The notes beneath the pieces were generated by a model, which saw only the letters and a program-made list of their open reading frames with translations, did no database searches and was not told the DNA's origin. A program made the translations under genes and the position numbers. A stretch of 64,000 nt of DNA from Nitrospirota bacterium. Lineage in GTDB: Bacteria > Nitrospirota > Nitrospiria > Nitrospirales > Nitrospiraceae. Position 1 is the first letter of the stretch. The number at the start of each line of letters is the position of its first letter. Shown piece by piece: positions 31,365 through 51,601 of this stretch. The DNA is taken from positions 32,001-96,000 of the forward strand of contig CAVPGK010000014.1 of assembly GCA_963703955.1 (NCBI GenBank). Reading direction: 5' to 3'.

Positions 31365-31528
31365 AGTATCTGGAGCTCAATGCAGGAGTCTCGTGTTCCG
31401 TACCATCTACGGTCGTGGCCACCGATCGGTCGCGGTAAGAGGCCCTGTGCGCGTCAGCCTGGCCCATGCGTGACCGTGCCCAGGTGGATTCTCGTGCATT
31501 CCTTGGTCTCAGGGGCCTGATTGAAGGA

Positions 31529-32574: not shown

Positions 32575-34857
32575 ATGCCCAAAGCACACCCTTACCGCCT
32601 TCAGGTCCTCACATGCGTCTGGGTTTTGGCCGTCGTCGCCGGAGTGCTGTTGGCGGTCGCGGTCATCGGAATCGTTGTCTGGCGTTCCGCCAGCGAACGT
32701 GTTCTGGAGCGGACCGGAGAGAGTCTCGCTCTCTCCGCCACCCATCTTGCAGACTCGTTGAACCGACTTCTATTCGAACAGGCACAGCATGCGCAAATGA
32801 TCGCCGAGGCTCCCGTTCTCCAGGGGCAAGATCGTGAAGAAATAGCTCGATACCTGCGCGCGTTGCAACGCACCAACCCGTCGTACGCATGGGCGGGAGT
32901 CACCGATGTCGACGGTCGGGTAGTCGCCGCGAGCGATGGGTCCGGTACGAGCTTTGAGGAGACTGGATCCGCTTGGTTCCAATCAGTCCGTCAAGCGGCC
33001 GGTATTGACATCAGAGAATTGGCTCAGACCCAAGGCGTGACTTCTCTTCTCATTGCCGTTCCGTTGCATGATCATGCGGGGCAATTTTGTGGAGCGGTCG
33101 TGTTGCAGATAGGGCTGACCAGCTTTACCTTCGTGTTGGATGAAGCTGTCCGTTCCAGCCGCCTCGTGCGCCAGGGGGGTACGGCTCAGGAATATCGATT
33201 CCTGGGTAGTGACGGAACGGTGCTCTTCGATTCAAGCATCCGTGACCTCGGGAGAATCAACTTGAGACACATGGGCCTGCCGTCGGCTATATTGATCCCC
33301 TCGGGACGCGCGGGCTATGTTGAAGAGACGGATGTTGGGCGGCGAGTTCCTGTTGTCACCGGTTTTGCCCAAGCCAATGGTTATGCCAAATTTCCTGGGT
33401 TGCGGTGGGGAATTACCGTCAGCATGGACCGGACCGATGTGGTGGCTCTCGTTCACCGTGATTTGAGAAGAGTCGCATTGTGGGGTGGACTCGGATGTCT
33501 TATCGTGGCTGCGTTCCTAGTTTGGACGTTGGAACGTCTGCGACGAGCCTGGATCACGGCCAAAGAAAGGGAAGGGTGGTTCTCTTCTCTTTTGAAGAGC
33601 ATGGCCGGCGGAGTGATTGCCACGGACAGTCGGGGTCGCGTTGTCTTTTTGAACCGCGCCGCGCAATCGATGACCGGATGGGGTTCAAGAGAGGCCTGTG
33701 GAAAAAGGTTGGCAGAAGTTTTGACAATCGTTCAGAAAGCGACAAGTTGTTGCGAAGTCACGCCGGTCGCCGCGGCGAGCCGGAAGGATGGCTTGTGTTT
33801 TTCCTCAGGGTCAGAACATTTGGTTGCGCGCGATGGATCGACCCTATCAGTTATCTCCCGAGCGGCGCCGATCGACGCGCCAGCGGGGGGGTCGGTTGTC
33901 GTCTGTCTGCACGAACGACCGCGTGAATCCGCGGAGTCGGATACTCGTGACACTCGAGCGGAGGGTGCGATCCAGCAGAAAGAAATGGGCAGCGATTGGG
34001 CCGGTTCAGATGGTCAAGCACTCTGGGAAAGCGTTCGACATTGGGTTCGTCTTATGGAGGTCTATCGAGTCAGTCTGTATGAAACCCGCCGGGGAGAGGA
34101 CAGGACTCTCTGGGCCAATGGGCGGTACGAATGGATCGGTCCGGGGGCTATCGGCAAAGCAGAGTGGTCGCGGTGGTTCAGTTGGTCCCTACGGGAGAAA
34201 GGATTCTCACGGTGGGAAGAGATGTTGAGCGCCGGACAGCTCATTTACGGAAGGGTGGAGGAGTTTCCCGAATCCGAACGGAGAGCATTGTCCTCCTACG
34301 GCGTTCACACTGTGGTGGTCGTCCCAGTCTTCGTCCGTCACTCCTGGTGGGGATTCATTGAGTTCGATCATGGCCTCGGCAAGCGCGAATGGACGACCCA
34401 GGAAGTCGTTGAGTTGGAGGCGTTTGCATGGCGTCTTAGCACCATGTTCCAGAATATCCACGGGGATGAACATCTGCAGCGCCTGCTCTTCGATTTGGAC
34501 GCAGCGCTGGAATTCACCAAGGATGGACTCTTGGTCGTGAATGACCAAGGTCATGTGACGGGTCTCAATCAACGCTTGCTCTCGATGTGGGATATCCCGG
34601 GCTCGGTGGGCGAATTCCGAACCAGCGATCAAATTCTAGGCTTGATGAAGGAACGGTTGGCGACCCCCGACACCCTTCTAAGAACTATCAGTGAATTGGA
34701 TTGCCAACCAGATGCGGAAAGCTACGATATCTTGGAATTGAAGGACGGTCGGACGATCGAGCGGTTCTCGAGACCGAAGCAGGAAGGCGATCAGTTTGTT
34801 GGCCGTGTGTGGAGTTTTCACGAAGTCACGGGCAGTCTGGCTCCAGCTCCATTGTAG
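32575..34857 (+). CDS. Membrane sensor: TM-Cache-TM-PAS-GAF-PAS with no output domain
   Basis: Two TMs flanking Cache-like region; PAS 'GVIATDSRGRVVFLNRAAQSMTGW'; GAF 'VVVPVFV..WWGFIEFD'; PAS ending 'GRVWSFHEVT'; no HisKA/HATPase/GGDEF. Confidence 0.8.
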   Translation: MPKAHPYRLQVLTCVWVLAVVAGVLLAVAVIGIVVWRSASERVLERTGESLALSATHLADSLNRLLFEQAQHAQMIAEAPVLQGQDREEIARYLRALQRTNPSYAWAGVTDVDGRVVAASDGSGTSFEETGSAWFQSVRQAAGIDIRELAQTQGVTSLLIAVPLHDHAGQFCGAVVLQIGLTSFTFVLDEAVRSSRLVRQGGTAQEYRFLGSDGTVLFDSSIRDLGRINLRHMGLPSAILIPSGRAGYVEETDVGRRVPVVTGFAQANGYAKFPGLRWGITVSMDRTDVVALVHRDLRRVALWGGLGCLIVAAFLVWTLERLRRAWITAKEREGWFSSLLKSMAGGVIATDSRGRVVFLNRAAQSMTGWGSREACGKRLAEVLTIVQKATSCCEVTPVAAASRKDGLCFSSGSEHLVARDGSTLSVISRAAPIDAPAGGSVVVCLHERPRESAESDTRDTRAEGAIQQKEMGSDWAGSDGQALWESVRHWVRLMEVYRVSLYETRRGEDRTLWANGRYEWIGPGAIGKAEWSRWFSWSLREKGFSRWEEMLSAGQLIYGRVEEFPESERRALSSYGVHTVVVVPVFVRHSWWGFIEFDHGLGKREWTTQEVVELEAFAWRLSTMFQNIHGDEHLQRLLFDLDAALEFTKDGLLVVNDQGHVTGLNQRLLSMWDIPGSVGEFRTSDQILGLMKERLATPDTLLRTISELDCQPDAESYDILELKDGRTIERFSRPKQEGDQFVGRVWSFHEVTGSLAPAPL

Positions 34858-35062
34858 GGGCAGTCCTGTTGTGACCACGGAAAGACTCGGTGCCTGCAGG
34901 TATTGACGAGAAGAGTTTGTAACCGTTCAGGGGAGCGATCGAAGGTATCAGGCAACCCGGCAATCCATGATAGATGGGCGGGCATGGCTTTCTTCTGGTT
35001 GAGTGTGGGAGGTGGACAGGGAGAGCAACCACAGTCACGGTCCTGCTACACGGAGAACGATC

Positions 35063-35695
35063 ATGATTAAAGTTCTGATTGCCGATGACCATGCCGTTGT
35101 CCTGGAGGGACTGAAGCAAATTCTTTCGGAAACGCCTGATATCGTTGTCTCGGCCCAGGCACGTGATGGACAAGAAGTGCTGGAGAAGATTCGGTCGAAC
35201 AATGTCGATGTCGTCGTGCTCGATATTGCGATGCCGGGACGAAGCGGATTGGATACTCTCATGCATATCAAACGGGAACGGCCCAACCTGCCCGTTCTTG
35301 TGCTCAGCATCCATCCCGAGGATCAGTACGCGGTTCGTGTGCTGAAGGCAGGTGCCTATGGATATCTAACCAAGGACAGCGCGCCGGACCAATTGATCAG
35401 CGCCATTCGAAAGGTGGTGATGGGTCGGAAGTATGTCAGCCCCTCTCTGGCTGAAAAATTAGCTTTCGATCTAGAGTCAGACACAGGGAAGCCTCCACAT
35501 GAAATTCTCTCTGATCGCGAATATGAAGTGCTCTGTATGATTGCGGTGGGAAAAACCGTCAAGGAGATCGCGGATAAGCTTTCCCTAAGCGTCAAAACAA
35601 TCAGCACATATCGCGCCCGCATTCTTGAAAAAATGAAAATGAAGAATAATGCGGAGCTCACCCACTACGTCATTCGGGAAGGCTTGCTTGACTAA
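35063..35695 (+). CDS. NarL/FixJ (UvrY-like) response regulator, REC + LuxR HTH
   Basis: 'LIADDH', 'VLDIAMP', 'GYLTK', 'LSDREYEVL', 'LSVKTISTYRARILEK'. Confidence 0.95.
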   Translation: MIKVLIADDHAVVLEGLKQILSETPDIVVSAQARDGQEVLEKIRSNNVDVVVLDIAMPGRSGLDTLMHIKRERPNLPVLVLSIHPEDQYAVRVLKAGAYGYLTKDSAPDQLISAIRKVVMGRKYVSPSLAEKLAFDLESDTGKPPHEILSDREYEVLCMIAVGKTVKEIADKLSLSVKTISTYRARILEKMKMKNNAELTHYVIREGLLD

Positions 35696-36161: not shown

Positions 36162-37295
36162 TTAGTCCTCAGAAATGAGCGCGGGCCTGGATGAAGCCGC
36201 GAGAGTTGGAAGGGAAGCGGTGGATTCACGTGCGATACGGACGAAGGTGTCGGCAAGTTTAGGATCGAATTCAGTACCGGCCAGTCGCCTTATTTGTTCG
36301 ATGGCATCATGCACGCTCAGCGCTGAGGCCTGTGCAGGTTGTTCGGCGGTCAGATGGTCGAACACTTGGGCAATGGAGACGATTCGGGCGAGCAGCGGAA
36401 TCCCGTCCCCCTGGAGCCCATAGGGATAGCCCATACCATCATACCGCTCGTGGTGGTAGAGGATGATCTGCCCCACCTCCGCCGGAACCCTAAGGGGGAG
36501 ACTCAATCGAGATCCCATCTCCGGATGACGCTTGAAGAGTTCGGACTCTCGTTCGTCCAAAACCCGCCTCTTGTCCAGGAGGCGGTCATCAAGCCCTATC
36601 TGTCCGACGTCATGAAGGAAGGACCCGATGGCGAGGGTTTTCCGCGCTTCTTCACTTAGGCCAAGATGTTTCCCAAGGAGTCCGGCATAGAAAGTCGTGC
36701 GGCTCGAATGATTGAAAAGATCGCGATTCTTAGCTTCCAACAAGTCTAAAAGAAGCGAAGTGGCTTCCCCGCTGTCGGACGCGCGGGATTCAGGCTTATG
36801 CTTTGAACGAGTCTGTTGGCAGAGATCACGAAGCTGATTCCATGCGGCAGACGATTCATGCTCTGTTCCCCAGAGTCCTTCCGAGTGCTTGAGGAAAAGC
36901 CGGAGCCCGGCGAGACGTTTCTTCTTGCCGAGCGTCTGATCGATAACGGCCAACAATTCTGTCACGTTGAAGGGCTTGAGCAGGTACGCTGCCGCTCCGT
37001 AGCGGATGGCATCCATCGCGGATTTCAGGCTGCCGTACCCGGTGATGATAACCACCTCAACATCACCACGCACCTCTTTGATTTGCTGCAAAAGGTCCAT
37101 GCCATTGCGATCGGGCAGCTTCATGTCAAGGGTCACGAGGTCAATCGTATTTTCTTTGAGGGTACGGATCGCCGCATGACCGTTGTCAACCGCGTGGAGA
37201 TTATAGAACGGTCGCAGGATGACCTTGAGGGCATTCCGGGGCCCTAACTCGTCTTCCACGATCAGTATGGTGGGTTTGTGGTCTTCTTGAAACAT
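36162..37295 (-). CDS. REC + HD-GYP domain protein (possibly degenerate c-di-GMP phosphodiesterase)
   Basis: REC 'IVEDE','LDMKLP','LLKPF'; 'LHDVGQ', 'HHERYDGMGYP', 'ARIVSIAQVFD'. Confidence 0.88.
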   Translation of the reverse strand: MFQEDHKPTILIVEDELGPRNALKVILRPFYNLHAVDNGHAAIRTLKENTIDLVTLDMKLPDRNGMDLLQQIKEVRGDVEVVIITGYGSLKSAMDAIRYGAAAYLLKPFNVTELLAVIDQTLGKKKRLAGLRLFLKHSEGLWGTEHESSAAWNQLRDLCQQTRSKHKPESRASDSGEATSLLLDLLEAKNRDLFNHSSRTTFYAGLLGKHLGLSEEARKTLAIGSFLHDVGQIGLDDRLLDKRRVLDERESELFKRHPEMGSRLSLPLRVPAEVGQIILYHHERYDGMGYPYGLQGDGIPLLARIVSIAQVFDHLTAEQPAQASALSVHDAIEQIRRLAGTEFDPKLADTFVRIARESTASLPTLAASSRPALISED

Positions 37296-37317
37296 CGGCG
37301 CCAAGAGTCTATTCGCC

Positions 37318-37346
37318 CTTATACGTCCGAAGACACATTTTGTCAA
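37318..37346 (-). promoter_or_regulatory. Putative internal sigma-70 promoter of the HD-GYP gene
   Basis: Minus strand TTGACA-N17-TATAAG just upstream of ATG 37295. Confidence 0.55.
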
Positions 37347-37378
37347 GCAAAACCAGTGTCTTATATCTTCGGCCTGGG

Positions 37379-38794
37379 TCAGGAAGGAGCAAAGGCTTCC
37401 CTATGTTCGGCTGATCCGTTCGAATCATCTCGGCGGATCCCGAGCATATCCATGCGGTATTTGAGCATCCGGCGGCTGATGCCCAGTAGCGCTGAGGCAT
37501 GAGTCTGGACATAATCCGTTTTCTGAAGGGCATCGAGGATGATCTTTCGCTCGAATTCCATGACGGCCCTTTCCAATGAGATCCGTCCGGAAAGAGTTTC
37601 ATTACGTAAGGAGTCGGAATGGGTGTCGGTTCTGAGACCACCCGGGAGGTGTTCCGGAAGGATGGTGTGGCCGTCCGACCAGACAATGGCCTGTTCAACC
37701 ACGTTTTCCAGTTCACGGACATTGCCGGGCCAGTTGTACTTGCTGAGGATCTCCAAGGTCTCCTTCGAAAATTCCTGGTGCGGGTGGTGCTCCTCTTCCA
37801 GTCGTTTGGCCAGGAAATGTTTCGCAAGCAATGGAATATCCTCGCGCCGATCGCGGAGAGCCGGCAGATATAGCGACACTACGTTAATTCGATAATAGAG
37901 ATCCTCTCGAAACTCTTTCCGTCGAAGGAGTTCCTCCAAATTCTTGTTGGTGGCCGCCATAATCCTCACGTCAACTTTGATCGGATGCGTTCCTCCAATG
38001 CGGGTGAATTCTCGTTCTTGGATGACCCGAAGCAACTTGGCTTGTGTCGCCAGGCTGAGGTCTCCAATTTCGTCGAGAAACACACTTCCGCCATGGGCAA
38101 GCTCAAACTGACCCAGGCGGCGTGACTGAGCGTCTGTGAAGGACCCTTTCTCGTGTCCGAACAGTTCGCTTTCGATCAATGTTTCGGGTAATGCGGCGCA
38201 ATTCAATGCAATAAACGGACGATCCCGACGTAAACTGTTGTAGTGAAGCGCGCGAGCGACCAACTCTTTCCCCGTGCCGCTCTCGCCGGTGATCAGGACC
38301 GTGGTCCGCGTGTCGGCGACCTGCACGATCTTGGCGTAAATGTCGCGCATGGCTGGACTTTTGCCCACGAGACTGTCAAATCCGTATTTATGTGCGACCT
38401 GGGCTCGAAGATATCGAACTTCCCGCTCTAACGCCTGTTTCTCGATTGCGTTTTCCATCGTGAGGCGAAGTTCTTCGATCTCAAACGGCTTGGTGAGATA
38501 GTCGGCGGCCCCCATCTTCATGGCGTCGACCACGGTTTTCACCATTTTTGTCCCTGTGAGCATGATGATCGGAATCCGAGGATCTTCCGAATGCATGGTC
38601 TTAAGCACCGAGAGACCGTCTTCGCCAGGCAGCATGACGTCCAATAAAACGAGATCAGGCGAATCACGCTTGTAGAGGTTCACGCCTTCTTCCCCCTCGG
38701 AGGCGCAGATGAGCTCATAGGTCGGTTCAAGGACCATCTTCAATGACATGTGGATGCTGGATTCGTCATCGACCAATAGAACCCGCTTTTTCAT
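37379..38794 (-). CDS. Sigma-54-dependent response regulator (NtrC family: REC-AAA+-Fis HTH)
   Basis: 'GESGTGKE', 'ESELFGHEKGSFTDA', 'FLDEIG', 'FREDLYYR', 'WPGNVRELEN', 'LLGISRRML'. Confidence 0.95.
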   Translation of the reverse strand: MKKRVLLVDDESSIHMSLKMVLEPTYELICASEGEEGVNLYKRDSPDLVLLDVMLPGEDGLSVLKTMHSEDPRIPIIMLTGTKMVKTVVDAMKMGAADYLTKPFEIEELRLTMENAIEKQALEREVRYLRAQVAHKYGFDSLVGKSPAMRDIYAKIVQVADTRTTVLITGESGTGKELVARALHYNSLRRDRPFIALNCAALPETLIESELFGHEKGSFTDAQSRRLGQFELAHGGSVFLDEIGDLSLATQAKLLRVIQEREFTRIGGTHPIKVDVRIMAATNKNLEELLRRKEFREDLYYRINVVSLYLPALRDRREDIPLLAKHFLAKRLEEEHHPHQEFSKETLEILSKYNWPGNVRELENVVEQAIVWSDGHTILPEHLPGGLRTDTHSDSLRNETLSGRISLERAVMEFERKIILDALQKTDYVQTHASALLGISRRMLKYRMDMLGIRRDDSNGSAEHREAFAPS

Positions 38795-41699
38795 GTTCGC
38801 TTTGTTCCTTTTTTGATGACACGTGTGCTAATGGGTTGGCTCTTAGATTGACATAGAATGTCGTTCCACTTCCCAGGGTACTCTCAACCTCAATGAAACC
38901 ATGGTGCTCCTGGATGATTTGATGGACGATGTTGAGGCCCAGTCCGGTTCCTTCACGTTCTCCACTCTCATGCTTGGTGGTATAGAAAGGGTCGAAAATG
39001 TGCTCCAAGTTGGCAGGTGCGATCCCGCTCCCCGTATCGGACACCTCGATCTGAACCCACAGATCGCCGGAGAGTTTTGTCACGCGATGCGTTCTCACGG
39101 TCAATTGGCCACCATCCTTATCCATCGCCTCCATCGCATTCTGAAACAGATTGTGCAAGACTTGTATGATTTGTTGCCGGTCGAGGAGGATACGGGGCAA
39201 ATCATCAGTCAGGTCTCGCTCGATTGTAATGGACTTGTTGGCAGCCTTGACCTCTATATAATAGAGACAGGAGGCCACGACGTCGTTGAGGTCCTCCTCA
39301 TTCAACTTGGGTTCCATGTATCGGGCGTAATCCAGGATTTCGTGGATCAGACGCTCGATCCGGCGGACATCTTCGATAACCACTTTGCTGAATTGATCGA
39401 TAAACTCTGCATCATGTCTTCGGCTTGGCGCCAACTGGATAAAGGTCTTAATGGATGTGAGGGGGTTTCGAATCTCATGTGCAAATCCACCTGCCATCGT
39501 TTCGAGAGAACGGAGGCGATCGGTGCGCCGCATGAGGAGTTGGGAGCGTTTGAGGTCCGTGTAGAGGATGGCATTGTCCAGAGCGACGGCGGCGTTCTGA
39601 GCTAGGGAAGTCAGCAGATTCAGATCGTCTTCGGTGTACTGGTAATGGTCATTCCGATGTCCCAAGTTAATAAAACCGATGACGCGATCCTTGTTGATCA
39701 AGGGAAGGCAAACCTCGGATGACATCTGCTGTAGGGTCTGCATGACGGATCGAGGAACGTCCGGGCTCCGCGCGTGCTCCAATTCTTCGCGGACGAGAAT
39801 CGATTGACAATATCTTAAGTGATAGGGCAAGCCGTCCTCTGCCGGTAGGCGGATGGTCTTGAGCTTCTCCGAATCTCTTGAATTTGCCAGCGCCAATGTG
39901 TAGAGGGCCTTTTCGTTATCCAGCAAAAACAACGAGATGTGTTTGATGCCCAATGATTTTTCGAGGGTGGCCAAAATGGTCTGAGTAAGTGTCGGCAGGT
40001 CCAAGATCGACACCATGGCCTTGCTGAATTCTCTCAAGGTGTCATAGGCCTCCTGTCTGCCCTTAAACAGGGTCTTGCCCACGATGCCTTCCACGTGTTT
40101 CTGCAGAGTGGCAAGAATTCCGGCGAAAATCATGTTGGTGGCCAGCAGGATTCCCGCCAACTGATAGTGCATGGAGCCGGTAAAGAGTCTAACCAAGAAG
40201 AGGATCACCACGTATGAAAGGGTTCCGATTGAAAACGCTTCGATATATGGGAGAACTTTGGATTTCGTCAGGACGAGGGAAATGTCCAGGAGTTGGTACC
40301 TGGCAATCGCATAGGAAACGATCAGAGTCCACGCGCTGACACAAAGGTAGCCCAGGGGATAGAACTCGACGCCGTAGTTCTGCACGAAATCGAGAGAGGC
40401 AAGATAGCCGATGACAAACGCCCAGAAGACATACTTAACCCGTGTGGCTTCAAGGGCATGTGCGGCAGCTTTATAGCCTGTGTGAAGCTTGAAAATCGAC
40501 AAGACGCTGACCCAGCCGAAATACACCAAGAAAACCGGGTGAAGGAGACCAGCTCTTGGATAGAACCCCCAAAAATAGGAGTAGTAGCCATCGATCAAAT
40601 AGGTGGTGGGAACGAGAAACAGGAAGATCGTGCTGATCAGGTAATTTGGCACAATCCACCTACAGCGGGGATGCGTTTGCAGAAGACTCACGCAGAAGTG
40701 GTAGAAAAAGGCCGGAATATAGACCACACCGGCGTAGACCACTTTGGCCCAGAACTGGACCTCTTCCGCACTCGATGCCGAATAAATCATGAAGAATCCG
40801 AACAGCCAGGTACTTAAACCGATGCAAATCAGACTGAAGGTGATATTCTTCACGGTCCGATGGCTTTTCATGAAAATCCATAAGCCACAGGCGACAACCA
40901 AACTGCCCGCGAGCAGCGGCGGGAGCGAATAGAGTGTGGCGCGTTCGCTGATGAGCACACCTAGGTAGATTGGCAACGTGATCGCCGCCAACAAGAGTCC
41001 GTAGGTAAGACCTTTGTGCATTACGATGGTGATGTCCATTAGTCGATGGCGGACGATCGCGTAAGAAATGATTCCGGCGAACAAGACCAGAAGGAAATCG
41101 TGCGGAAATGGCTCTACTTGGACATAGGCTCCGACGAAATGCATGAGCCCGGCGGTGTAGGCAAGCGCAAACGAAGCAAGGACGTACCCGAGCTGATTTC
41201 TTCTTAATCCCGTTGACTGAACATAGCTTCTAAAGGTCTTGTAGAACGCGAAACCGCAACCCAATCCAAAAAATGCCGTGAAAGGTATAAAGAGCCCACC
41301 GGGAATGACCGCGTACAAGAAATCGTGGCGGACGACCCCTTGTATAAAGCTGTGACTGAATGCGAAGGCCGAGAAAACAAATGAGCAAACAAGTAAGCCT
41401 GTCAAGAAGTGTCGTTCGAAAGGATCGTGTTCCAAATGCAAGAGGACGACGACAAAATAATAAAATGCAGTTGGCACAAACGGAGCGAATACGTACACTA
41501 TTCGACCCACGATAGCAGCCGTTTCATCACTCGCGGGAAGGGAGATAAGAAAAGGGAAAACGGTCCACGTGCCTGCAAGGAAGGCGATGAGCGCAAAGGA
41601 TCGGTTAAGAAGTTTCTCGGTATCCTTTAAGTAAACTAAAAGCCCTACGCTCAGGCAGCTAGCTGATGCTGTCAGGGAGGCGAGCGGATAGAGATTCAC
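38766..41699 (-). CDS. Sensor histidine kinase with two tandem 7TM (HisKA_7TM-like) domains, GAF, HisKA, HATPase
   Basis: Repeated membrane modules ending 'YAIVRHRLMDI' and 'YAIARYQLLDI'; 'AHEIRNPL', 'NLFQNAMEA', 'DTGSGI', 'GTGLGL'; GTG start overlaps upstream TGA (GTGA 41696-41699). Confidence 0.92.
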   Translation of the reverse strand: MNLYPLASLTASASCLSVGLLVYLKDTEKLLNRSFALIAFLAGTWTVFPFLISLPASDETAAIVGRIVYVFAPFVPTAFYYFVVVLLHLEHDPFERHFLTGLLVCSFVFSAFAFSHSFIQGVVRHDFLYAVIPGGLFIPFTAFFGLGCGFAFYKTFRSYVQSTGLRRNQLGYVLASFALAYTAGLMHFVGAYVQVEPFPHDFLLVLFAGIISYAIVRHRLMDITIVMHKGLTYGLLLAAITLPIYLGVLISERATLYSLPPLLAGSLVVACGLWIFMKSHRTVKNITFSLICIGLSTWLFGFFMIYSASSAEEVQFWAKVVYAGVVYIPAFFYHFCVSLLQTHPRCRWIVPNYLISTIFLFLVPTTYLIDGYYSYFWGFYPRAGLLHPVFLVYFGWVSVLSIFKLHTGYKAAAHALEATRVKYVFWAFVIGYLASLDFVQNYGVEFYPLGYLCVSAWTLIVSYAIARYQLLDISLVLTKSKVLPYIEAFSIGTLSYVVILFLVRLFTGSMHYQLAGILLATNMIFAGILATLQKHVEGIVGKTLFKGRQEAYDTLREFSKAMVSILDLPTLTQTILATLEKSLGIKHISLFLLDNEKALYTLALANSRDSEKLKTIRLPAEDGLPYHLRYCQSILVREELEHARSPDVPRSVMQTLQQMSSEVCLPLINKDRVIGFINLGHRNDHYQYTEDDLNLLTSLAQNAAVALDNAILYTDLKRSQLLMRRTDRLRSLETMAGGFAHEIRNPLTSIKTFIQLAPSRRHDAEFIDQFSKVVIEDVRRIERLIHEILDYARYMEPKLNEEDLNDVVASCLYYIEVKAANKSITIERDLTDDLPRILLDRQQIIQVLHNLFQNAMEAMDKDGGQLTVRTHRVTKLSGDLWVQIEVSDTGSGIAPANLEHIFDPFYTTKHESGEREGTGLGLNIVHQIIQEHHGFIEVESTLGSGTTFYVNLRANPLAHVSSKKEQSEHEKAGSIGR

Positions 41700-43948
41700 T
41701 TGCTGGTTTTCCGCATCCTGGTTATGGTAATGCCTTGTAGGTGGGAGGTTTTCTGCCACACGTAGTTCAACTCGCCATATGGTCCTCCTGTTCTGCGGGT
41801 CCCTCCATGCGTCGCCAAAAAAGGTGAGAAGCCTGCATGTCGACAATTGATTCGCAAGAGCCCACTGTTGTGGATCTGCTCGGAAAATTTATTGACGTAA
41901 AAGGGCGATGAAGCCCAAGCGGACACTCGGAGGCCATACTCATTGTTGTTTGCTACGTGGACCATTTTCTTGAAGATAACCATGTCCTTCGTGCCCTTAT
42001 CAGCGCCCCTCGCATCTGCAGAGACTCTTATGAGTGGGATCAGGGGAAAAAAGTTTTCCTCGTTCATACACCTCATTTGAGACGCCTTCGAAAGATCCTT
42101 TACCCTGATCACCGTCGGAGTAATGAATTGACCATGATTGTCAGGAATCGCCTTATAATTCACTCTGTATCCACCACAGAGCAACTCGGCTCCTTTGGCT
42201 AACGCTTCCTCTAGGAACTCGAAGAACTCAGGAATCTTTATGACCGGTGAGAAAGTAACGTGTGGATCGGTTGGCAACCCGATTCGCAGCTTTTTGACAG
42301 CTGAAAGAAATAGCTCCTGAAAAGACTCAAAAATATCCTCGTGGATAAAGGCTTTTTTCGGTACCATGCAAACCTGTGTGGAACCCATAAACCCGTCCAA
42401 TAATGATTGGACCGCCATCTCCAAGGGAGCATCCTTCCAAACGAACATCATGTCGTTTCCAGAAAGTTCGAGAATAGGTTTTTTCCCATTCTCATAGGCT
42501 CGAGCCCCAATCTTGAGTCCAGTCTTGCTGTCTCCAATGAAAATTAGGTCGTTAACAAGTTGACTGTTGAGCCATTCATCAACAATCAACTCGGAGTTTC
42601 CAACTACAAGATTCACTGTTCCATCGGGTGCATGATTGTGTTTCAATGACTCGTGAACGACGTTCTTCCAGAGGAAGAGGGTGGAAATAGGGGATTGAAG
42701 CGGAGGCTTCACAACGAGAGTATTCCCGGAAAGAAGAGCGAAACCGGCGATTAATGAGGCGCTGCACGGCGCGTTCCTAGGAGGGCTGACGCACACAACT
42801 CCATCGGGCTTTCTCTTCCAATACAGATTCTCTTCGTCGACCACGGCTATCTTCCTTGTGAGGTGTTGAACATAAAAGTCGAGTGAAGGCTTGCGGTAAG
42901 CCTGTTCCATTCCAAGGAATTCCCATTCGGCCAACTGTCGTGGGTGACCTTCAACAACCATGAGTTCGATCAGCTGGTCTTTATTTATCAGCAGAAGGTC
43001 ATGTATGTCTGTGGCGATCCTTAGGCGTTTGGAAAGAGAGAAATAGCGAAATTCCTGGCTGGCCGCGTAGGCGGCCTCGAGAGCCGCTCGATTGGTATCT
43101 TTCTTGCCGAAACAATAACGCGCGTATATGTAATCCTTATAGTTTGGTGGAACCTGTCCTCGCTTGACCTGCTTCATCACCTGCGAGACTGCTTCCTGGT
43201 CCGTAAGAAGTTTAGCTGCGGGGACCACATACTTGTAATGGCCTGTGTCGATATCGTTACCGTTGATCAGCAAGGCGAAGGTCGGAATATCCAGATTGAG
43301 GGCGAGGGGTGCTTCCTTGTCGACAGGATGAGATATTTGGACGAACGGCAGGGGCGGTTGAGTCTGTGGTTGCCGTGCAGATATCAGCGCGTCATACGTC
43401 AAAGGAGGAAGGATCTGTGGGACGTTGGCCATGTCGGCATGAGCCTTGTCGTTAGCAGGAGGGCGGTACAACCTTGCAGCTTCTTCAGCAAGACTGTCTC
43501 GAGAGAGGAAAATGGTCAGGAGAGATTTGTCACGCGTCGGGCCTATTCGGCCTAGTTCGTCCAAAAGTGAAAGAAGAATGATCTGCTCCCATTCTCGAAT
43601 ATCTGAAAACTTAATCCCGATGATATCGAGTGCGCCATGTTGCGCGTAACGGCAGTAGACAATCTGTCCGCAAACGTTCAAATAACAGATATTGCCGCCG
43701 AATGAAAACTTGAGGGCGAGAGGGGTGCCCATAGCCAAGGGGACGCCGCTGACTACTCTCAAACCTCCTGGGCTGATATCTTCCGTCTGACAAGAAATTG
43801 AAGTGTCCTTGATATGGATGCAGGTGGGGATGTGAAGTGACTTCCGTATATGTCGACGGACATACGGTCGTTGTGTCTCAGACTCCAGACTTTCCCATGC
43901 CGACAGCATGGTTCTCTTAGGGAGGTGTTCTTTAGTACCTTGTGGCAT
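41696..43948 (-). CDS. PilZ domain - aldehyde dehydrogenase family fusion
   Basis: PilZ 'RRHIR...DISPGG'; ALDH 'PPRNAP', 'GNTLVVKP', 'FIGDSKTG', 'LELSGND', 'TQVCM', 'EENFFP', 'NNEYGL'. Confidence 0.88.
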   Translation of the reverse strand: MPQGTKEHLPKRTMLSAWESLESETQRPYVRRHIRKSLHIPTCIHIKDTSISCQTEDISPGGLRVVSGVPLAMGTPLALKFSFGGNICYLNVCGQIVYCRYAQHGALDIIGIKFSDIREWEQIILLSLLDELGRIGPTRDKSLLTIFLSRDSLAEEAARLYRPPANDKAHADMANVPQILPPLTYDALISARQPQTQPPLPFVQISHPVDKEAPLALNLDIPTFALLINGNDIDTGHYKYVVPAAKLLTDQEAVSQVMKQVKRGQVPPNYKDYIYARYCFGKKDTNRAALEAAYAASQEFRYFSLSKRLRIATDIHDLLLINKDQLIELMVVEGHPRQLAEWEFLGMEQAYRKPSLDFYVQHLTRKIAVVDEENLYWKRKPDGVVCVSPPRNAPCSASLIAGFALLSGNTLVVKPPLQSPISTLFLWKNVVHESLKHNHAPDGTVNLVVGNSELIVDEWLNSQLVNDLIFIGDSKTGLKIGARAYENGKKPILELSGNDMMFVWKDAPLEMAVQSLLDGFMGSTQVCMVPKKAFIHEDIFESFQELFLSAVKKLRIGLPTDPHVTFSPVIKIPEFFEFLEEALAKGAELLCGGYRVNYKAIPDNHGQFITPTVIRVKDLSKASQMRCMNEENFFPLIPLIRVSADARGADKGTKDMVIFKKMVHVANNNEYGLRVSAWASSPFYVNKFSEQIHNSGLLRINCRHAGFSPFLATHGGTRRTGGPYGELNYVWQKTSHLQGITITRMRKTSK

Positions 43949-44086
43949 CCTAAATGCCTTTGAAGCTACAATGGCGCGCCCTGCACATTACGAAACCGAC
44001 TTCATGCTAAAGAATCAGGAAGGAAAGCAGTCTGAAGGTTCTCATGATCATCAGACACTTAGCTCGTCGAAGCTTTGATCGACAAA

Positions 44087-44114
44087 ATTGTACACTCTTC
44101 TGCATATAATGCAA
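44087..44114 (-). promoter_or_regulatory. Possible promoter of the PilZ-ALDH/HK/NtrC operon with overlapping palindrome
   Basis: Minus strand TTGCAT-N16-TACAAT; TGCAT-ATA-ATGCA palindrome at 44101-44113. Confidence 0.35.
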
Positions 44115-44310
44115 TACCTAAGAGGAATATTGACCTCGGAGGTTCCAGGCTCTCAGCGGGCTAGAGATTCTATAGAAGTCCAAACTGAAGAGTTTTTTCG
44201 GCGGTGTATGTGATTCAGAAGCCCTCGCTATGCCTGATAATTTTGAAAATATCAAGAAAAATATTTAGGAATACTAAAATTACATCAGAGACGTGCAGTT
44301 GGGGCTCATC

Positions 44311-47300
44311 TCAGGTCATCTTTTGTCCCCCCTTTTCTGCAACAGCGATGTAGGCCTGGTTCGCGAATGTCGAATAGATACGGGGCTGCAGGGCCCCGGA
44401 CGAGATCAACAGCGTCGCCAACTCTTGCCGATCGAAGAATCGAAAAACGCCTTCCTGCTCCCGCTGCGCAATCTTCCCTGATGTGTTCAATACCTGTTTC
44501 GCTTTTTCAATTTCCTCGGCTGGTTTACCGAGTCCAAGAAAATTCCGATAAATAGGAGAGAGATCCGCCTGAGGCTTGAAGATCGTCATGACCAGTCTTC
44601 CTCCCGGGGATAGCACTCGCATTAGTTCACGAAGAGTAAAGAGGGGGTCGCGAAGGTATCCGATGACCAAGTTACACAAGATTCGATTGAACTGGTTATC
44701 ATGAAAGGGCAATGTCTGGTCAAGGTCTGCTTGCGCGAGCGCCGACGCCAGAATCGGAAGGGGCCTTTCGGTTGAAGGGAACCGCTCATGAATGTCGGCA
44801 GCGACCCTTGACAAGTTAAGCTGCGCCTGCGAGAGCCCGCTCATAACGAAATCGACTCCCAAGTACCGCATTCGTTGGGTAACCGGAGAGTTTCGTAAGC
44901 GATATGATTCGTTAATAAACAAGAACATCCCAAAATTGCCGTTTCCGCAGCCGGCGTCCAAAACGCAGTCGTTCTCGCCAAGATTACCCATGAGACGGTA
45001 GATGTGGTCGAGGAGATGCCAATAGTCAGAAAAGTTCACAATGAACTGAGACTGGTCGAGATAGTCTCGCCAGAATTCAAACGCCTCAGATTTGGCCATG
45101 TGGTGTTGCGTGCGAGCACGCTCTCGTTCAAGCCGAACCTGGCGATCGAGTTCGTGATCCGACGGGAGAGCAAGTTGGAACGCATCGGAGAGCGGATAGA
45201 ACCAAGCTCGGCAACACTGCACCATCCGTTGAAAGACGTCCCGCGCACGCTCCGGGCGTTTGTGGATGTCATGAACCGCATCGGCCATGAGATACCAGTC
45301 AATGGCATATTCCCGCAGGGAGGTTTTCACCTTCTTTAACGCGCCTTGATCAACCCACGAATCGTGTTCCGATGAAAAGAAAACGACCGGGGTTTTCACT
45401 TGCTCGGCATCCTTCAGCGTCGTCTCCAGATCGGAATACTCTTGTCGGGTCGCATCTGCCAGCCATCGATCTGCATCAACCGAAAACCCCAGCAGATTGC
45501 TGACCCCCCGTCTCATGCCGTGAAGGTGGCCGCCAACCAAATCTTCCCCGTGTACGGTCCGTAACGTCGACTGCACGTCAACCACTCCGCCCAAGAGAAG
45601 AAGGAACTTGACAGTACGGCTCTGCAAGATAGTCTTCAACGCGACCCGGCCGGTCACTCCCGAGGCTACCACAAGGACCGGACTGGCGGGCCAGAGACGA
45701 TCAGCGTAGCTCAGAATCGCGCGGAGATCTTCGTTCATCGTCGTGAGCGTGGTATGGACGATGTCGCCCTGACTGTCGCCGATATGAAATGTGTGGTCAT
45801 ATCGAATCACCCGAAAGCCGTTGCCGGCGAAATGATAGGCCAACGAGACATAGTCTCTCTTGGTTTCTCCGAATCCAGGGGCAAGAATGACGAGCGGAGA
45901 GCCAGGCGGGAGTGCCTCACGGGGATGATCATGGTACAGCACGAGGCGACGTCCTCTTTCATTGAGGCATTCCAGCAACTCACTAACCAAGGTCGTTTGT
46001 TCATGAGGGTCCTGGATACGGTCGGGCGAGGTAAGGTAGTGAGTGATGAGTTCCGCAATCCTGCGCTCGGAGGCGCCGTCAAAACGTATGAACCGAAGCC
46101 CGATGAGGAGGGGAGTTGCTGATGAGGGCTCTGAAGGAGTTGTCGAAACAGCGGAGGCCGAAGAAACCCACACCACGTCGCCCATGACGCAATCTTCCTT
46201 CCCTGGCGCGTTCTCCGTGGAACGATCCGATACCGTTCGAGAAGTGTCCAGACACAGACGAATGCGATGACCCACTACGTCGGGTGAGGCGTGTAGTCGC
46301 ACCCGGGCCCCAGTGGTCGTCAAATCGACCAGGTGAGCCTCCACACGGTCAAATCTCGGGGCAGTTCCGATTGATCCCACTTGAACAGGGACATCGAGAT
46401 GTACGCGAGCTGATACGCGCCGATCCCCGGGACCCCCTTCATTCTTCTTGGCAAAGCCTGCCGGGATATCAACGAGCTCAACACGCTCATGATCGGTCAG
46501 TATGCCGGACTGGTGCTGTCCTGCGTCGCGCGGTAGGAGCACGGCGGTCAGCTTGACCGTGACTGTTCGACTGCGGAGGCCTTCGAACAGCGATTTCAGT
46601 ATTCGGCTTTCCGAATCCTGGAGGACTGAGAATTCAACGGCGAGTCCGGTCAATGAGAGCTTGTCGTGGTGATCCTGAGTGACAGCGGGCTCACGGAGTT
46701 CACAGACCCTCCCCGAAATCTCCAAGATCCCCACGTCGCTGATGAATCCTAATCGGATCGACTGGAACACATGTGCGGACACCGGCCCTTTGAATACTGT
46801 GTATACGCCGCCCAGGCTGACGTTCAGGGTCGTGCCGGTCCACGCGGTCCCATTGAGTCGCAGATAGGTCTCCATCTGAACTTCAGTTCGCGGAGAGCGG
46901 CGTCGTTCGGGGAAAAGGCACTCGTCGGTTGTCTTGGACGGAACGAGGCGGATGGGTGAGTCTTCGACTTTCGTCGACATCGGGGGAGTGTGAGGAACTG
47001 CGGACCCCGACGATCCATAACCGAACTCTTTCTGAACATCCTGCAAGGTGTGAAGCAGTTGCTCCGCGTTCGCGAGGATCGTGGCGAGGGGGGGTGCCAA
47101 GTCCGCGAGCCGGCGCGCCAGGCGTTCCTTATCTTGCGATTCAACGACTGGCCTCAGTACGCCAGTCGTTCCGAGATACTGGCGATACCGATCGTACAGA
47201 GCCGTGGCATTGACCTCGACGACGATGGGTTTCTGCGCTTCTCCTTTGACCTTGAGTTGAAGCTGGAGCTTCCTCGTCGCGCGGGGCAATGAACGTCGTT

Positions 47301-47907
47301 CGTTGAAGTGCCGATTCGCCTTCACCAATTCATCGGAGCCGAGGATCGAGGAATACGGGAGTCCGATCAATTCGTGAGGCTCATAATTGAGCAATGCCTT
47401 CACGGCCGGGCTGAGATACACAAATCGCCCCTCGGCATCGAGTTCATAAATCGTTTCAGTCAGGTTCTCGATCAGGTTTTGGTACCGATCCTGCGAGAGA
47501 TCGAGCCGTGAACGCAGATCCCGCTTTTCGAGCGCCTCTCGGGTGACAATCGGCAGGTCCATGAGCGCTGCGGGTGAATACTTGAAAAAATAATAATCTG
47601 CTCCGCCGCGCATCACGCGAAGCGCGACGCGCGGGTCTTGCTGAACGCCTTCGACGATGATGGCGGATTGTGGAGCTCGACGCCTGATTTCCTGGAGAAG
47701 ATCGAGATCGCCCGCATGGGGAAGTTGCTCGTCGAGAAGGATCATGTGCCAGTCGAGTTTGGATGCCCACTCCAAGGCCTCGTTCGCGGAATAGACGGCC
47801 TCCACTCGACATCCGGGGTAAAAGGATCTCAGACTCACGGTCATGAGTTTGATTTCCTCCGCTTGCTCATTGACGAGCAAGACTGTCATGGCTTCAGATT
47901 TAGGCAT
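44311..47907 (-). CDS. Multidomain REC-PAS-PilZ-PilZ-LuxD-like acyltransferase/thioesterase-SAM methyltransferase
   Basis: REC 'ILLDEQLP'; PAS 'IYELDAEGRFVYLSP'; PilZ 'RRRSPR..NVSLGG' and 'RRVSAR..DLTTTG'; LuxD-like 'APGFG','NGFRVIRYD..HIGDSQG','GVVDV','DSWV','HDI'; MTase 'VLDAGCGNG','LSPGG'. Confidence 0.85.
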   Translation of the reverse strand: MPKSEAMTVLLVNEQAEEIKLMTVSLRSFYPGCRVEAVYSANEALEWASKLDWHMILLDEQLPHAGDLDLLQEIRRRAPQSAIIVEGVQQDPRVALRVMRGGADYYFFKYSPAALMDLPIVTREALEKRDLRSRLDLSQDRYQNLIENLTETIYELDAEGRFVYLSPAVKALLNYEPHELIGLPYSSILGSDELVKANRHFNERRSLPRATRKLQLQLKVKGEAQKPIVVEVNATALYDRYRQYLGTTGVLRPVVESQDKERLARRLADLAPPLATILANAEQLLHTLQDVQKEFGYGSSGSAVPHTPPMSTKVEDSPIRLVPSKTTDECLFPERRRSPRTEVQMETYLRLNGTAWTGTTLNVSLGGVYTVFKGPVSAHVFQSIRLGFISDVGILEISGRVCELREPAVTQDHHDKLSLTGLAVEFSVLQDSESRILKSLFEGLRSRTVTVKLTAVLLPRDAGQHQSGILTDHERVELVDIPAGFAKKNEGGPGDRRVSARVHLDVPVQVGSIGTAPRFDRVEAHLVDLTTTGARVRLHASPDVVGHRIRLCLDTSRTVSDRSTENAPGKEDCVMGDVVWVSSASAVSTTPSEPSSATPLLIGLRFIRFDGASERRIAELITHYLTSPDRIQDPHEQTTLVSELLECLNERGRRLVLYHDHPREALPPGSPLVILAPGFGETKRDYVSLAYHFAGNGFRVIRYDHTFHIGDSQGDIVHTTLTTMNEDLRAILSYADRLWPASPVLVVASGVTGRVALKTILQSRTVKFLLLLGGVVDVQSTLRTVHGEDLVGGHLHGMRRGVSNLLGFSVDADRWLADATRQEYSDLETTLKDAEQVKTPVVFFSSEHDSWVDQGALKKVKTSLREYAIDWYLMADAVHDIHKRPERARDVFQRMVQCCRAWFYPLSDAFQLALPSDHELDRQVRLERERARTQHHMAKSEAFEFWRDYLDQSQFIVNFSDYWHLLDHIYRLMGNLGENDCVLDAGCGNGNFGMFLFINESYRLRNSPVTQRMRYLGVDFVMSGLSQAQLNLSRVAADIHERFPSTERPLPILASALAQADLDQTLPFHDNQFNRILCNLVIGYLRDPLFTLRELMRVLSPGGRLVMTIFKPQADLSPIYRNFLGLGKPAEEIEKAKQVLNTSGKIAQREQEGVFRFFDRQELATLLISSGALQPRIYSTFANQAYIAVAEKGGQKMT

Positions 47908-48401: not shown

Positions 48402-49406
48402 TTACCGGGCCTCGACTCTCTCGTCGGCGCCGCAGATCCCCGGTGTCATGTACAGAAGGTAGTTCCCCATGCCGTGCTGAACGCGGGGATCGTGCAAAGG
48501 ATGGTGATAGACCATCACCATCTCATACTCATCCTTCGTTGTCACTGAAAACCCTTGAGCATCTCTATATACCTGGTGAGGCTGAAACGCAATGAATGTC
48601 CCGTCTTGGGCCACGTCCGGAACCGTGCGAAGAAGGGTTCGACCGGCCGTCCTGTTTTCGAGCGCAATCAGAAGTAATTCGTCGTGTCCGTGGGGATACG
48701 CGAATTTGACACATCCGTCCATCCGAAACTTCAGCGTGGACGATAGGGTGTGAACCCCCGGCTTGATTTCGATTCCCTCATCGGTCTGGTCTTTCCCGCG
48801 TTGTCCAAACTTGCTGTAGCAGACGATGTTCACGCCGACTTGATAGACGTCCATTTCTTTGATGGGAGTACCGTCAGGAGCCATCTCCATCGTGAAGGTT
48901 GCCATCACATCCTTCATCGGCGGGGCCTTATGATAGAAGGCGACCACGGACATCAGCTTCTTGCCCTTTTCCAATTTCACCCCATAGCCGGACGGAAAAC
49001 GGGCCTCGGTCATCTCCAAGCCGGCGCCTGAGAAGAATAGCGGCTCGCCGGGACACGAGACGCTTTCTTTATCGTTGTTCATCATGAGAATGTGATGCAG
49101 ATACTGCTGTGGCAGGGGCCTGCCTTCTTTCGTAAAGACAGCCGATTTGAAGCCGACCAAATACATATCCTTCGGGAGTTCGAAAATATGCTTCGGCATG
49201 CTGGCCGCCAATTCACCGTCGTGTGCGGCCGGAAGGTCGATCGGTCCGAATGTCAGGGTGACCGTAGTGCCTTCAACCGTGACAGTGGTGGTGGTCTGTC
49301 CGTCCAATGTCGGAACGCCATGCGAATGGCTCTCACTTCCCAGTGCCGGGCCGGCCATGGCTGAGAACATCAGCATCAGCAATCCTACCGAGACCAATCG
49401 CTTCAT
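48402..49406 (-). CDS. Secreted protein with copper type II (PHM/DBH-like) monooxygenase ligand pattern
   Basis: GGAGGA RBS, signal peptide; 'YLHHILM', 'FYH', 'PHGH', 'HGMGNY'. Confidence 0.6.
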   Translation of the reverse strand: MKRLVSVGLLMLMFSAMAGPALGSESHSHGVPTLDGQTTTTVTVEGTTVTLTFGPIDLPAAHDGELAASMPKHIFELPKDMYLVGFKSAVFTKEGRPLPQQYLHHILMMNNDKESVSCPGEPLFFSGAGLEMTEARFPSGYGVKLEKGKKLMSVVAFYHKAPPMKDVMATFTMEMAPDGTPIKEMDVYQVGVNIVCYSKFGQRGKDQTDEGIEIKPGVHTLSSTLKFRMDGCVKFAYPHGHDELLLIALENRTAGRTLLRTVPDVAQDGTFIAFQPHQVYRDAQGFSVTTKDEYEMVMVYHHPLHDPRVQHGMGNYLLYMTPGICGADERVEAR

Positions 49407-49438: not shown

Positions 49439-50326
49439 CTACGGAGTCGACGCAGAGTTTGAATCTGGAGAAGGAGTCAGTCGTTTCAACAGATACTTAC
49501 CCCCCCATTGCCTGGCAGGAATGTCTTTCCGATCACCGACGCGTGTATACCACCAGACGCCTCTTGCTTGCGTTCCATCCTCAGACAGGAGCACTTCAAA
49601 CGCCCCCTCTCGGTCGTTTCCGGACTGGTGCCATGTCCCTTGCCACTTTTGGTCGGCAACCCCAGTGGTGGTGATCTTGCCATTTTGCCACGTATAAGTG
49701 CCGTTCCCGTCACGGTCAAGGGTGGCTTTATAAGACTTATCTTCTTCTTGGATATCCCATTCCCCGCTGAGATCGGGCCTTTGAGACAGCTGAGCGGCGC
49801 TGATCGGACCCGCGGCACCTTGAACGGACCCGGAACTGACCGCAGTGCTTCCGGTTCTTGCGGATTCGTGCCAGGCGACCAAGATCCATGTTCCATTCCG
49901 GCGCTCCAGAACACCGGTCTCACGAAGCGGAATGACGGTTCCGGCGGTTTTCTCGCCGGCTACATGGCGGATATAGTCCAGTTCCATTGCAAACCAGGCG
50001 GTGTCACCGCGAGTCCACACGGCGAGGTCGGTGATGGGAATTTCCAAGCGCTCGACCGAGTCGAACTCCAGTCGCATGTCGCGCGCAAAATCGGCCCACC
50101 CGACATACTTTCGGCCTCCGATCGTATAACTGATCATATCCGGATCGCGTGACATGAATCGTTCCATACCGGCCAGATCTTTGGCTGCATTGGCCTGCAC
50201 GAGAGCCCGCAATACGTCTTCCGGAGTCGAAGGATCCTCTGATTTGGCGAAGGCTTGAAATACAAGAAGGAATATCACGGACCCGGCGAACAGGAGTCGA
50301 CCCAACTGCATGCAGCGTTTACTCAA
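49439..50326 (-). CDS. Secreted SnoaL/NTF2-like domain protein with C-terminal Trp/Gly-rich beta domain
   Basis: Signal peptide; 'RETGVLERRNGTWILVAWHES'; C-domain 'DLSGEW','WQGTW','GVWWY'. Confidence 0.75.
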   Translation of the reverse strand: MSKRCMQLGRLLFAGSVIFLLVFQAFAKSEDPSTPEDVLRALVQANAAKDLAGMERFMSRDPDMISYTIGGRKYVGWADFARDMRLEFDSVERLEIPITDLAVWTRGDTAWFAMELDYIRHVAGEKTAGTVIPLRETGVLERRNGTWILVAWHESARTGSTAVSSGSVQGAAGPISAAQLSQRPDLSGEWDIQEEDKSYKATLDRDGNGTYTWQNGKITTTGVADQKWQGTWHQSGNDREGAFEVLLSEDGTQARGVWWYTRVGDRKDIPARQWGGKYLLKRLTPSPDSNSASTP

Positions 50327-51182: not shown

Positions 51183-51208
51183 AGCATTCGACCTCTGCGC
51201 AAAGATCA

Positions 51209-51601
51209 TTATGCGAAAGGTGGTCGAGGTGTGTGGGGGTGATGGCGCTCCACCGGTGGACAATGGATCAGGCCAGCGGGTCCCAAATTGCGCGTGTCGG
51301 CCTCATTGTACTCAATCGGCCGATCGTGGGTGTCAGTTCGGCCTCGGCGCCGCTCATGTCGGAGCCTGACCGCATCCCATCCATCCAAGCCGTCGACCGG
51401 CGTAGGGACCCGCCACGGCGACGTCTCCCTGTGGAGGCGGCTCGCTACAGTTGCAGTCATTGAGGAGTTTTCGTTCGGGGCTGATGCCAGGAAGAGACTC
51501 GACGGCGGGAAGACATGCCAATGCGACACGCCCTGCACCCGGAGCTTTCGCTCTGTCAGTTCGCCGATGCCCTTGAACAAGATAAGGGTCGATTCAATCA
51601 T
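51209..51601 (-). pseudogene. Internally deleted RNase H-like (YprB-type) exonuclease remnant
   Basis: Family-like N-terminus 'GIGELTERKL..QGVSHW..F' and C-terminus 'GLDGWDAVRL....G......YNEADTRNL' with the central DIET catalytic core missing. Confidence 0.6.

Follow-up and report, generated by a model that had tools for sequence, protein, structure and literature searches.

An enzyme and the first sensor domain of a HisKA_7TM-GAF kinase are exchanged as one cassette among Nitrospirota loci, a candidate family of synthase-receptor signalling systems

The locus described here comprises five genes, A to E, on the minus strand at positions 36162 to 47907 of the window, a stretch of 64,000 nucleotides (nt) from a Nitrospirota bacterium (assembly GCA_963703955.1, contig CAVPGK010000014.1, positions 32,001 to 96,000). 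Gene B encodes a PilZ-aldehyde dehydrogenase (ALDH) and gene C a histidine kinase with two seven-transmembrane (7TM) sensor domains. Comparison with related loci revealed that the enzyme and the first of these domains (7TM-1) are swapped together as a cassette, and that the cassette boundary falls within the kinase gene. What is conserved across loci is a core in which the enzyme gene immediately precedes that of a HisKA_7TM-GAF kinase; the PilZ, NtrC and HD-GYP components are lineage add-ons. It seems rather probable to us that these loci constitute a signalling family, so far undescribed, of synthases and receptors whose chemistries can be exchanged, built of cognate pairs for lipid-derived signals.

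All five open reading frames (ORFs), co-directional as the first-pass annotation had them, were recovered by ORF and domain scans, and a domain-family scan plus NCBIfam found the domains first named for them, with matches to the LuxD-like (PF02273), PilZ, Aldedh and HisKA_7TM (PF16927) families. Gene B (41696..43948, minus strand as for all features of the locus; 750 amino acids, aa) carries a PilZ domain with canonical RxxxR and D/NxSxxG motifs (RPYVR and DISPGG) and an ALDH of a distinct family with the catalytic Asn, Glu and Cys motifs and the Gly-rich loop present. Proteins P0184-P0303 of this distinct family are PilZ-fused in Nitrospirota and stand alone (about 525 aa) in records named as Omnitrophota. 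Kinase C (977 aa) starts at the GTG at 41699, is coupled to gene B by a GTGA and overlaps gene D by 29 nt, both junctions having been noted before. Its PF16927 match (64.8 bits) falls into two stretches before the HisKA-HATPase part, 7TM-1 (41001..41699) and a second domain, 7TM-2 (40236..40931), which are followed by a constant half with GAF, HisKA (AHEIRNP) and HATPase domains (38766..40199). It was the sole HisKA_7TM protein found in the window genome (Atlas 0.98).

A tree was built from 62 7TM domains, 43 first and 19 second (all trees were quick ones with SH-aLRT support only). The first domains grouped by adjacent enzyme, with one clade each for the fused LuxD-like hydrolase-methyltransferase (LuxD-MT; 33 rows, support 100), for the diiron decarboxylase UndA (6 rows, 100), for ALDH (2 rows, 100) and for the ketosynthase KAS III (2 rows, 97). 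All four clades cross family lines, and the ALDH clade joins 7TM-1 of the window to that of an ALDH locus in another family. The second domains (19) fell into a clade of their own, which tracks taxonomy and not enzyme type, and the constant half of the kinase also follows taxonomy. Enzyme type has to change nine times on the tree of the GAF-kinase half, but three times on the 7TM-1 tree, and approximately unbiased (AU) tests on the GAF-kinase half (23 of 65 rows) rejected the ALDH, UndA and KAS III clades (p 3.9e-9, 2.6e-6 and 1.1e-3, respectively); within one genus, an ALDH and an UndA kinase are close sisters in that half. With 12 near-duplicate loci left out, 20 7TM domains from metagenomes joined the LuxD clade (support 99), and those of solo UndA loci joined the UndA clade (100). 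Since 7TM-1 groups by enzyme and the GAF-kinase half by taxonomy, enzyme and sensor were swapped together. The co-evolution expected of a cognate synthase and receptor was therefore found, for the ALDH type only in part.

Base composition gives modest support for a crossover within the kinase gene. The G+C content at third codon positions (GC3) is 52-55% in gene B and 7TM-1 (55% in the latter) versus 62-66% in 7TM-2 (65.5%), the GAF-histidine kinase part and genes A, D and E; that of the recN and NarL genes is 56-59%. A structural model of 7TM-1 (pLDDT 93) predicts seven helices in a G protein-coupled receptor (GPCR)-like fold with an extracellular beta-hairpin after the fourth helix. Nearly all of its 50 fold matches were of GPCR type (top Z 15.8, root mean square deviation [rmsd] 4.5, 217 residues aligned), a likeness of the model that is near the chance level for helical bundles and indicates no function. 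HisKA_7TM is listed without a ligand in the available parts of PMC5847659 and PMC8638967, and no ligand for it turned up in the literature searched.

The distribution of the genes separates this core from the rest of the locus. The LuxD-MT core was found in 161 of 251 genomes of the order, versus 4 of 251 for the ALDH family of gene B, which was found in 3 of 401 genomes of the phylum (own genome counted throughout); the full five-gene set was seen in the window genome only. Relatives' loci are labelled as Nitrospirota in 67 of 68 cases, the remaining one being unlabelled. Across 81 annotated loci, the common block is gene A-kinase-NtrC-HD-GYP near recN, with a variable slot before the kinase that holds nothing, PilZ-ALDH, PilZ-UndA or PilZ-KAS III. 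The UndA homologue is a clear one (E 5e-31 against 4WWJ/6P5Q, with the ExxH and HxxYDD motifs kept), and UndA was not found in the window genome. There are also loci that pair UndA or ALDH with a kinase and have no LuxD gene close by (L095, L096, L110, L112, L222-L226, L312, L313). A five-gene operon was therefore rejected as the conserved unit, and with it the earlier claim that the five genes make up a conserved circuit. Of the first interpretation as a whole, the pairing of enzyme and receptor is supported, and the five-gene unit, the LuxD activity, the single pathway and the HD-GYP feedback are not. Copies of the enzyme or kinase genes are frameshifted or split in L095, L096, L094, L119 and L214, by assembly error or decay.

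Stand-alone LuxD-MT proteins, about 570 aa long, emerged from a profile search, in clusters with members named Omnitrophica and Opitutaceae. A metagenome scan with nine of these as queries gave 80 loci without taxon labels, 68 of which had at least 280 nt of downstream sequence, 12 being too short. In 68 of 68, a HisKA_7TM domain begins 15-30 nt past the end of the LuxD-MT core, and no PilZ, linked NtrC or HD-GYP was found in any of them. Therefore, the core consists of the enzyme and the 7TM kinase. The catalytic triad was intact in 72 of 73 metagenome cores, the remaining one being a gap, and a FadL-family gene was present in 41 of the 80 loci and in 34 of the 41 with enough upstream DNA. 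A plasmid search with the solo LuxD-MT gave no match. FadL-family genes were also seen directly upstream of a PilZ-UndA gene (L110:8569-10248), near a kinase-less LuxD-MT (L086:10660-11781) and, in the window genome, among GAF/hybrid kinase clusters (G000 C5:27934-29022 and C21:140699-141787).

The LuxD triad decays where the LuxD-type sensor has been replaced or lost. In a set of 72 loci (three truncated rows and one duplicate left out), a 7TM kinase accompanied 36 of 37 intact triads, whereas the 35 loci with a broken triad comprised 31 without 7TM and 4 in which a cargo enzyme of the slot came with another sensor type. A further set of 42 cores, a few duplicated among themselves, contained 25 intact triads preceding a 7TM domain and 2 intact ones at contig ends; the other 15 were 5 without 7TM, 3 before a PilZ cargo, 4 truncated, 2 without data at the Ser position, and L138, which is discussed below. 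Conserved positions of LuxD/MT were kept at 0.95/0.95 in intact loci (n=23), 0.87/0.80 with cargo (n=8) and 0.62/0.53 without 7TM (n=22), the window copy having 0.84/0.87.

The most widespread form of the recN locus, in several genera of the window's family (L031-L037, L111, L114-L125, L127, L130), has a decayed LuxD-MT of about 1400 aa, often with Asp at the nucleophile, and a sensor-less GAF-kinase. It keeps its NtrC and HD-GYP partners and may be a pseudo-enzyme scaffold or a cross-wired output module. Genus g31 has a second, intact LuxD-MT + 2x7TM pair elsewhere. In L215:2-5462 (G410, another order), genes for an acyl-CoA dehydrogenase, a PilZ-LuxD-like-MT (triad S-D-G) and a kinase run in one direction; the membrane sensor of this kinase does not match HisKA_7TM, so the same logic appears with another receptor.

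In the window, the LuxD-MT is gene A (44311..47907; 1198 aa), with an atypical REC, then PAS, two PilZ domains, a LuxD-like alpha/beta hydrolase and an S-adenosylmethionine (SAM) methyltransferase. Its hydrolase scored 83.7 bits with PF02273 (cut-off 20.3; E 2e-23) and had Vibrio LuxD (1THT) as best sequence match (E 4e-21), although it reached only 81.4 of the 420 bits of the NCBIfam LuxD equivalog. The LuxD nucleophile Ser114 aligns with Gly750, whereas Asp849 and His879 are kept, so that the Ser-Asp-His triad present in most 7TM-linked relatives is incomplete here. As its nucleophile is replaced, the domain is probably a pseudo-thioesterase and the LuxD step dead in this copy, contrary to the fatty-acid release first ascribed to it. 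Rescue by a shifted Ser was considered unlikely, as intact homologues too have Ser, Thr or Ala one residue upstream and the nearest relative, L021, has Thr-Gly. Methyltransferase motif I (LDAGCGNG) is intact, and the methyltransferase is retained where LuxD has been deleted (L129, L194). The first PilZ domain is canonical (RRSPR/NVSLGG) and the second a variant (DLTTTG) with Thr for Ser. Gene A would have been kept here as a scaffold for REC/PAS/PilZ signalling, and its methyltransferase may still work.

A model of an intact LuxD-MT homologue (pLDDT 94) had LuxD 1THT as best fold match (Z 30.3, rmsd 3.0, 275 aligned). Hydrolases dominated its fold matches, and the methyltransferase half matched generic class I enzymes only (CmoA at Z 20.6, BelI, OxaG). 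A bioluminescence or LuxCDE reading was rejected: as noted before, the window has no luxA, luxB or luxE, and the genome (82% complete) showed no LuxE or luciferase family and no convincing luxC, the single weak LuxC-family match lying on another contig in a stretch that the ALDH also matches by tblastn. A separate 494-aa protein (G000 C10:182255-183733) is 45% identical to the REC-PAS N-terminus of gene A, and the gene A homologues of L026 (12588-13530) and L027 carry about 300 extra aa without Pfam match behind the methyltransferase.

The output side was addressed through sigma-54 sites, with a consensus taken from general knowledge; rpoN is present in the window genome. Such sites lie in front of 24 of 42 LuxD-MT genes that lack REC-PAS, against 2.5 expected from shuffled sequence and 0 on the opposite strand, and in front of 13 of 41 HD-GYP genes (1.9 expected). 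They suggest that autoinduction may occur in relatives, and do not suggest it for the window copy. Gene D (37379..38794) encodes a sigma-54 activator of NtrC type that has the phospho-Asp and Walker A/B, along with a GSFTDA loop, a variant found in 29 of the 37 AAA+ ORFs of the loci. Between D and E lies a degenerate -24/-12-like element (37346..37362) with GA for GG, where relatives have GG...TTGCT. Gene E (36162..37295; 377 aa from the ATG at 37295) is a REC-HD-GYP protein with Gln at what we take to be the last metal-binding Asp and at the Lys after HD. This Asp was kept in 1 of 41 HD-GYP homologues, which does not agree with the normal phosphodiesterase feedback proposed earlier, and gene E is likely a weak or non-catalytic binder of cyclic di-GMP (c-di-GMP) or an adaptor. 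Control of genes A and B by c-di-GMP is suggested by their PilZ motifs, which are intact; outside Nitrospirota, the forms of the locus have no PilZ. Two PilZ surveys (10.1101/814665 and 10.1101/2020.02.11.943704) contain, in the portions available, no passage on fusions to acyl or aldehyde enzymes.

According to the mechanism proposed, the enzyme would make a lipid-derived diffusible signal and 7TM-1 of the kinase would bind it, the likely working pair of the window genome being PilZ-ALDH and 7TM-1. In the ancestral LuxD-MT type, a fatty acid would be released from acyl-acyl carrier protein and then methylated to a PhcB-like methyl ester; the UndA type would yield a 1-alkene, and KAS III would give an acyl product by condensation. 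The ALDH type would oxidise some aldehyde to the acid, the direction that its catalytic Glu favours, and its substrate is the weakest link of the scheme. Kinase C would phosphorylate gene D's product, which would act on sigma-54 promoters, in relatives including those of the synthase and HD-GYP genes, so that the signal would induce its own synthesis; gating by c-di-GMP through PilZ would be a Nitrospirota add-on. More tentatively, and at somewhat less than even chances for the whole of it, HisKA_7TM domains might be bacterial GPCR-fold receptors for lipid autoinducers, serving a cross-phylum quorum sensing (Nitrospirota, Opitutaceae and probably Omnitrophota) whose language would change when chemically unrelated one-gene synthases are swapped in along with a receptor domain to match, with the UndA clade as receptor for a volatile 1-alkene and tandem 7TM kinases hearing two signals.

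Several observations weigh against cognate synthase-receptor pairs. L138 is a true exception, with a LuxD-type 7TM next to a broken triad; L086, with its triad intact, lacks an adjoining kinase; L026 and L088 have kept the triad beside an UndA-type sensor; and five weaker or solo UndA matches (L227-L231) have no adjacent 7TM. Only three phylogenetically independent pairs were available for triad versus 7TM (p 0.5, no power). The KAS III grouping has to be read with a long-branch warning in mind. Two further ALDH loci coupled to 7TM kinases (G271 and G540) have first 7TM domains in a separate clade, sister to the second-7TM clade (base not settled) and apart from that of the window; they join none of the other enzyme types either, and as they do not join the window's domain, there is no single ALDH sensor type. 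No aldehyde source for the ALDH was found, and no aldehyde synthase is adjacent. Sigma-54 sites precede only 3 of 34 REC-PAS forms (2.1 expected), and the window has no strict site upstream of A or B and a GA variant before E only. Besides, linked neighbours can travel jointly without any functional match. A recombination hot spot might thus move the 5' end of the kinase gene with whatever gene precedes it, for which PilZ and the constant half of the kinase would offer crossover homology, and L138 and the split ALDH clades would be the imperfect matching expected of it. This is nevertheless very improbable, because LuxD-MT keeps its LuxD-type sensor all the way from Nitrospirota to the stand-alone forms of metagenomes, whose core identity is about 35-40%, and because the enzyme falls into decay where that sensor type has been lost.

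A more serious competitor, though still an unlikely one, keeps the cognate pairs but makes them cell-autonomous, the 7TM domain reading a substrate or product in the cell's own envelope, or the pair sensing and clearing an aldehyde or lipid from outside. The ALDH type fits this best, with the residues of an oxidising enzyme kept and no adjacent aldehyde synthase; sensor and enzyme would be expected to co-vary here too, and FadL could import foreign lipids. However, three of the four enzyme types (thioesterase-methyltransferase, UndA and KAS III) are biosynthetic on housekeeping acyl pools, the repeated swaps of chemically unrelated enzymes look like diversification of private signals, and the sigma-54 sites on the synthase suggest positive feedback. 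The model originally put forward, in which LuxD-MT and ALDH form one c-di-GMP-gated pathway within a five-gene circuit with HD-GYP phosphodiesterase feedback, is quite improbable. It is consistent with the intact PilZ motifs in A and B, with the HD-GYP sigma-54 sites of relatives and with an intact methyltransferase motif in a domain that outlasts LuxD, so that A might methylate the acid made by B, but the Ser to Gly change in A, the near-universal loss of the HD-GYP Asp and the restriction of the full set to the window genome argue against it, as does the presence of ALDH beside 7TM kinases without LuxD-MT (L095, L312, L313); the two enzymes are alternatives for the same slot. The reading of synthase and receptor as cognate partners is thus the one that we retain, being favoured by the position of the enzyme directly upstream of the kinase, the co-variation of the sensor type, the decay of the enzyme without its sensor, the FadL genes nearby and the sigma-54 sites before the synthase in relatives.

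Whether the locus is transcribed as one operon is doubtful, because the gap between A and B carries a conserved extended -10-like block. This gap (362 bp, 42% GC) includes a 22-nt block at 44081..44102 containing TGTACAAT, identical in L021, that would likely be part of a separate B-C-D promoter. A sigma-70 scan did not call the block as a promoter, and sigma-70 and terminator scans gave no excess over shuffles. In one metatranscriptome, a few low-depth contigs covered B-E and the gap and none covered A, too weak a signal to be used. Downstream of the locus, on the plus strand at 31466-35695, are genes for Wza polysaccharide export, for a Cache-PAS-GAF-PAS protein without output domain and for a NarL-type regulator, which separate the locus from recN here, though not in most relatives. 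On the other side, on the minus strand, lie genes for a secreted-looking 334-aa protein without Pfam or NCBIfam match and with 69-84% identity in relatives (48402-49406), for a SnoaL-like protein (49439-50326) and for a PP2C phosphatase (50406-51263), all of which are found upstream of gene A in many relatives.

The signalling of Nitrospira is described in the available parts of PMC5767232 and PMC6606698 in terms of LuxI/LuxR acyl-homoserine lactone (AHL) systems only, with a patchy distribution, in contrast to the 161 of 251 genomes of the order that hold the present locus family. A LuxI search of the window genome gave no match, but control sequences were unmatched too. No description of a system of enzyme and HisKA_7TM-GAF kinase was found in the literature covered, which leaves out supplements and, for the most part, subscription journals. 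If these loci are signalling systems, they would provide a means of approaching how nitrite oxidisers and comammox relatives behave in biofilms and flocs. For the widespread HisKA_7TM they would supply named ligand hypotheses, namely a methyl ester, a 1-alkene, a ketosynthase product and an acid or aldehyde, and for the alkenes of UndA a candidate receptor. They also offer a natural experiment in the exchange of a receptor together with an unrelated synthase as a single module.

Among known systems, Vibrio LuxD of LuxCDE is the best match of the hydrolase domain in sequence and fold, but the genome has neither its luxE and luxAB partners nor a convincing luxC, and the window copy is without the Ser. 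PrsK/PrsR of the PEP-CTERM system resembles kinase C and gene D in joining a membrane-GAF-HisKA kinase to an NtrC-type partner, with a Wza gene near in the window, but both scores fell below cut-off (TIGR02916, 120.8 of 300; TIGR02915, 422.3 of 502.6) and the match leaves out the sensor.

In the staphylococcal agr groups, synthase and N-terminal sensor of the kinase co-vary, while the catalytic half of the kinase and the regulator are constant. The likeness to the present loci is that synthase and sensor are swapped together, with no relation in sequence being claimed; agr uses one peptide chemistry, whereas here unrelated enzymes (thioesterase-methyltransferase, diiron decarboxylase, ketosynthase and ALDH) interchange. 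Xanthomonas RpfF/RpfC/RpfG, the diffusible signal factor (DSF) system, has a fatty-acyl signal synthase beside a membrane kinase and a REC-HD-GYP partner. The domain scan of genes A-E found neither a crotonase-fold synthase of the RpfF type nor hybrid RpfC kinase domains, and the REC-HD-GYP protein is not catalytically complete. Vibrio CqsA/CqsS, as far as PMC3310172 was available, also has a fatty-acyl signal synthase beside a membrane kinase; the present locus differs from both systems in having no crotonase or pyridoxal phosphate (PLP) synthase, a kinase that is not hybrid and a non-canonical HD-GYP.

A parallel in logic is the Ralstonia PhcB/PhcS system of 3-OH MAME/PAME quorum sensing. 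According to the accessible text of PMC8578825 and PMC11960443, its sensor kinase reads a fatty-acid methyl ester produced by a SAM methyltransferase. A SAM methyltransferase beside a membrane sensor kinase is found here as well, and the LuxD-MT type would work alike. In the present loci, however, the methyltransferase and a LuxD-like thioesterase form one protein, the sensor is of the HisKA_7TM-GAF type and the output runs through NtrC/sigma-54, where Ralstonia has the LysR regulator PhcA. Three further enzymes can also occupy the slot. No PhcB/PhcS family is among the NCBIfam matches listed for gene A (the best 25 of 28). In Pseudomonas, 1-undecene is reported to be an intraspecies signal whose receptor has been hypothesised only, and undA adjoins the c-di-GMP enzyme gene rbdA (PMC10614000, in the part available). 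The alternative cargo of the loci described here is a clear homologue of that enzyme, and a dedicated 7TM clade travels with it.

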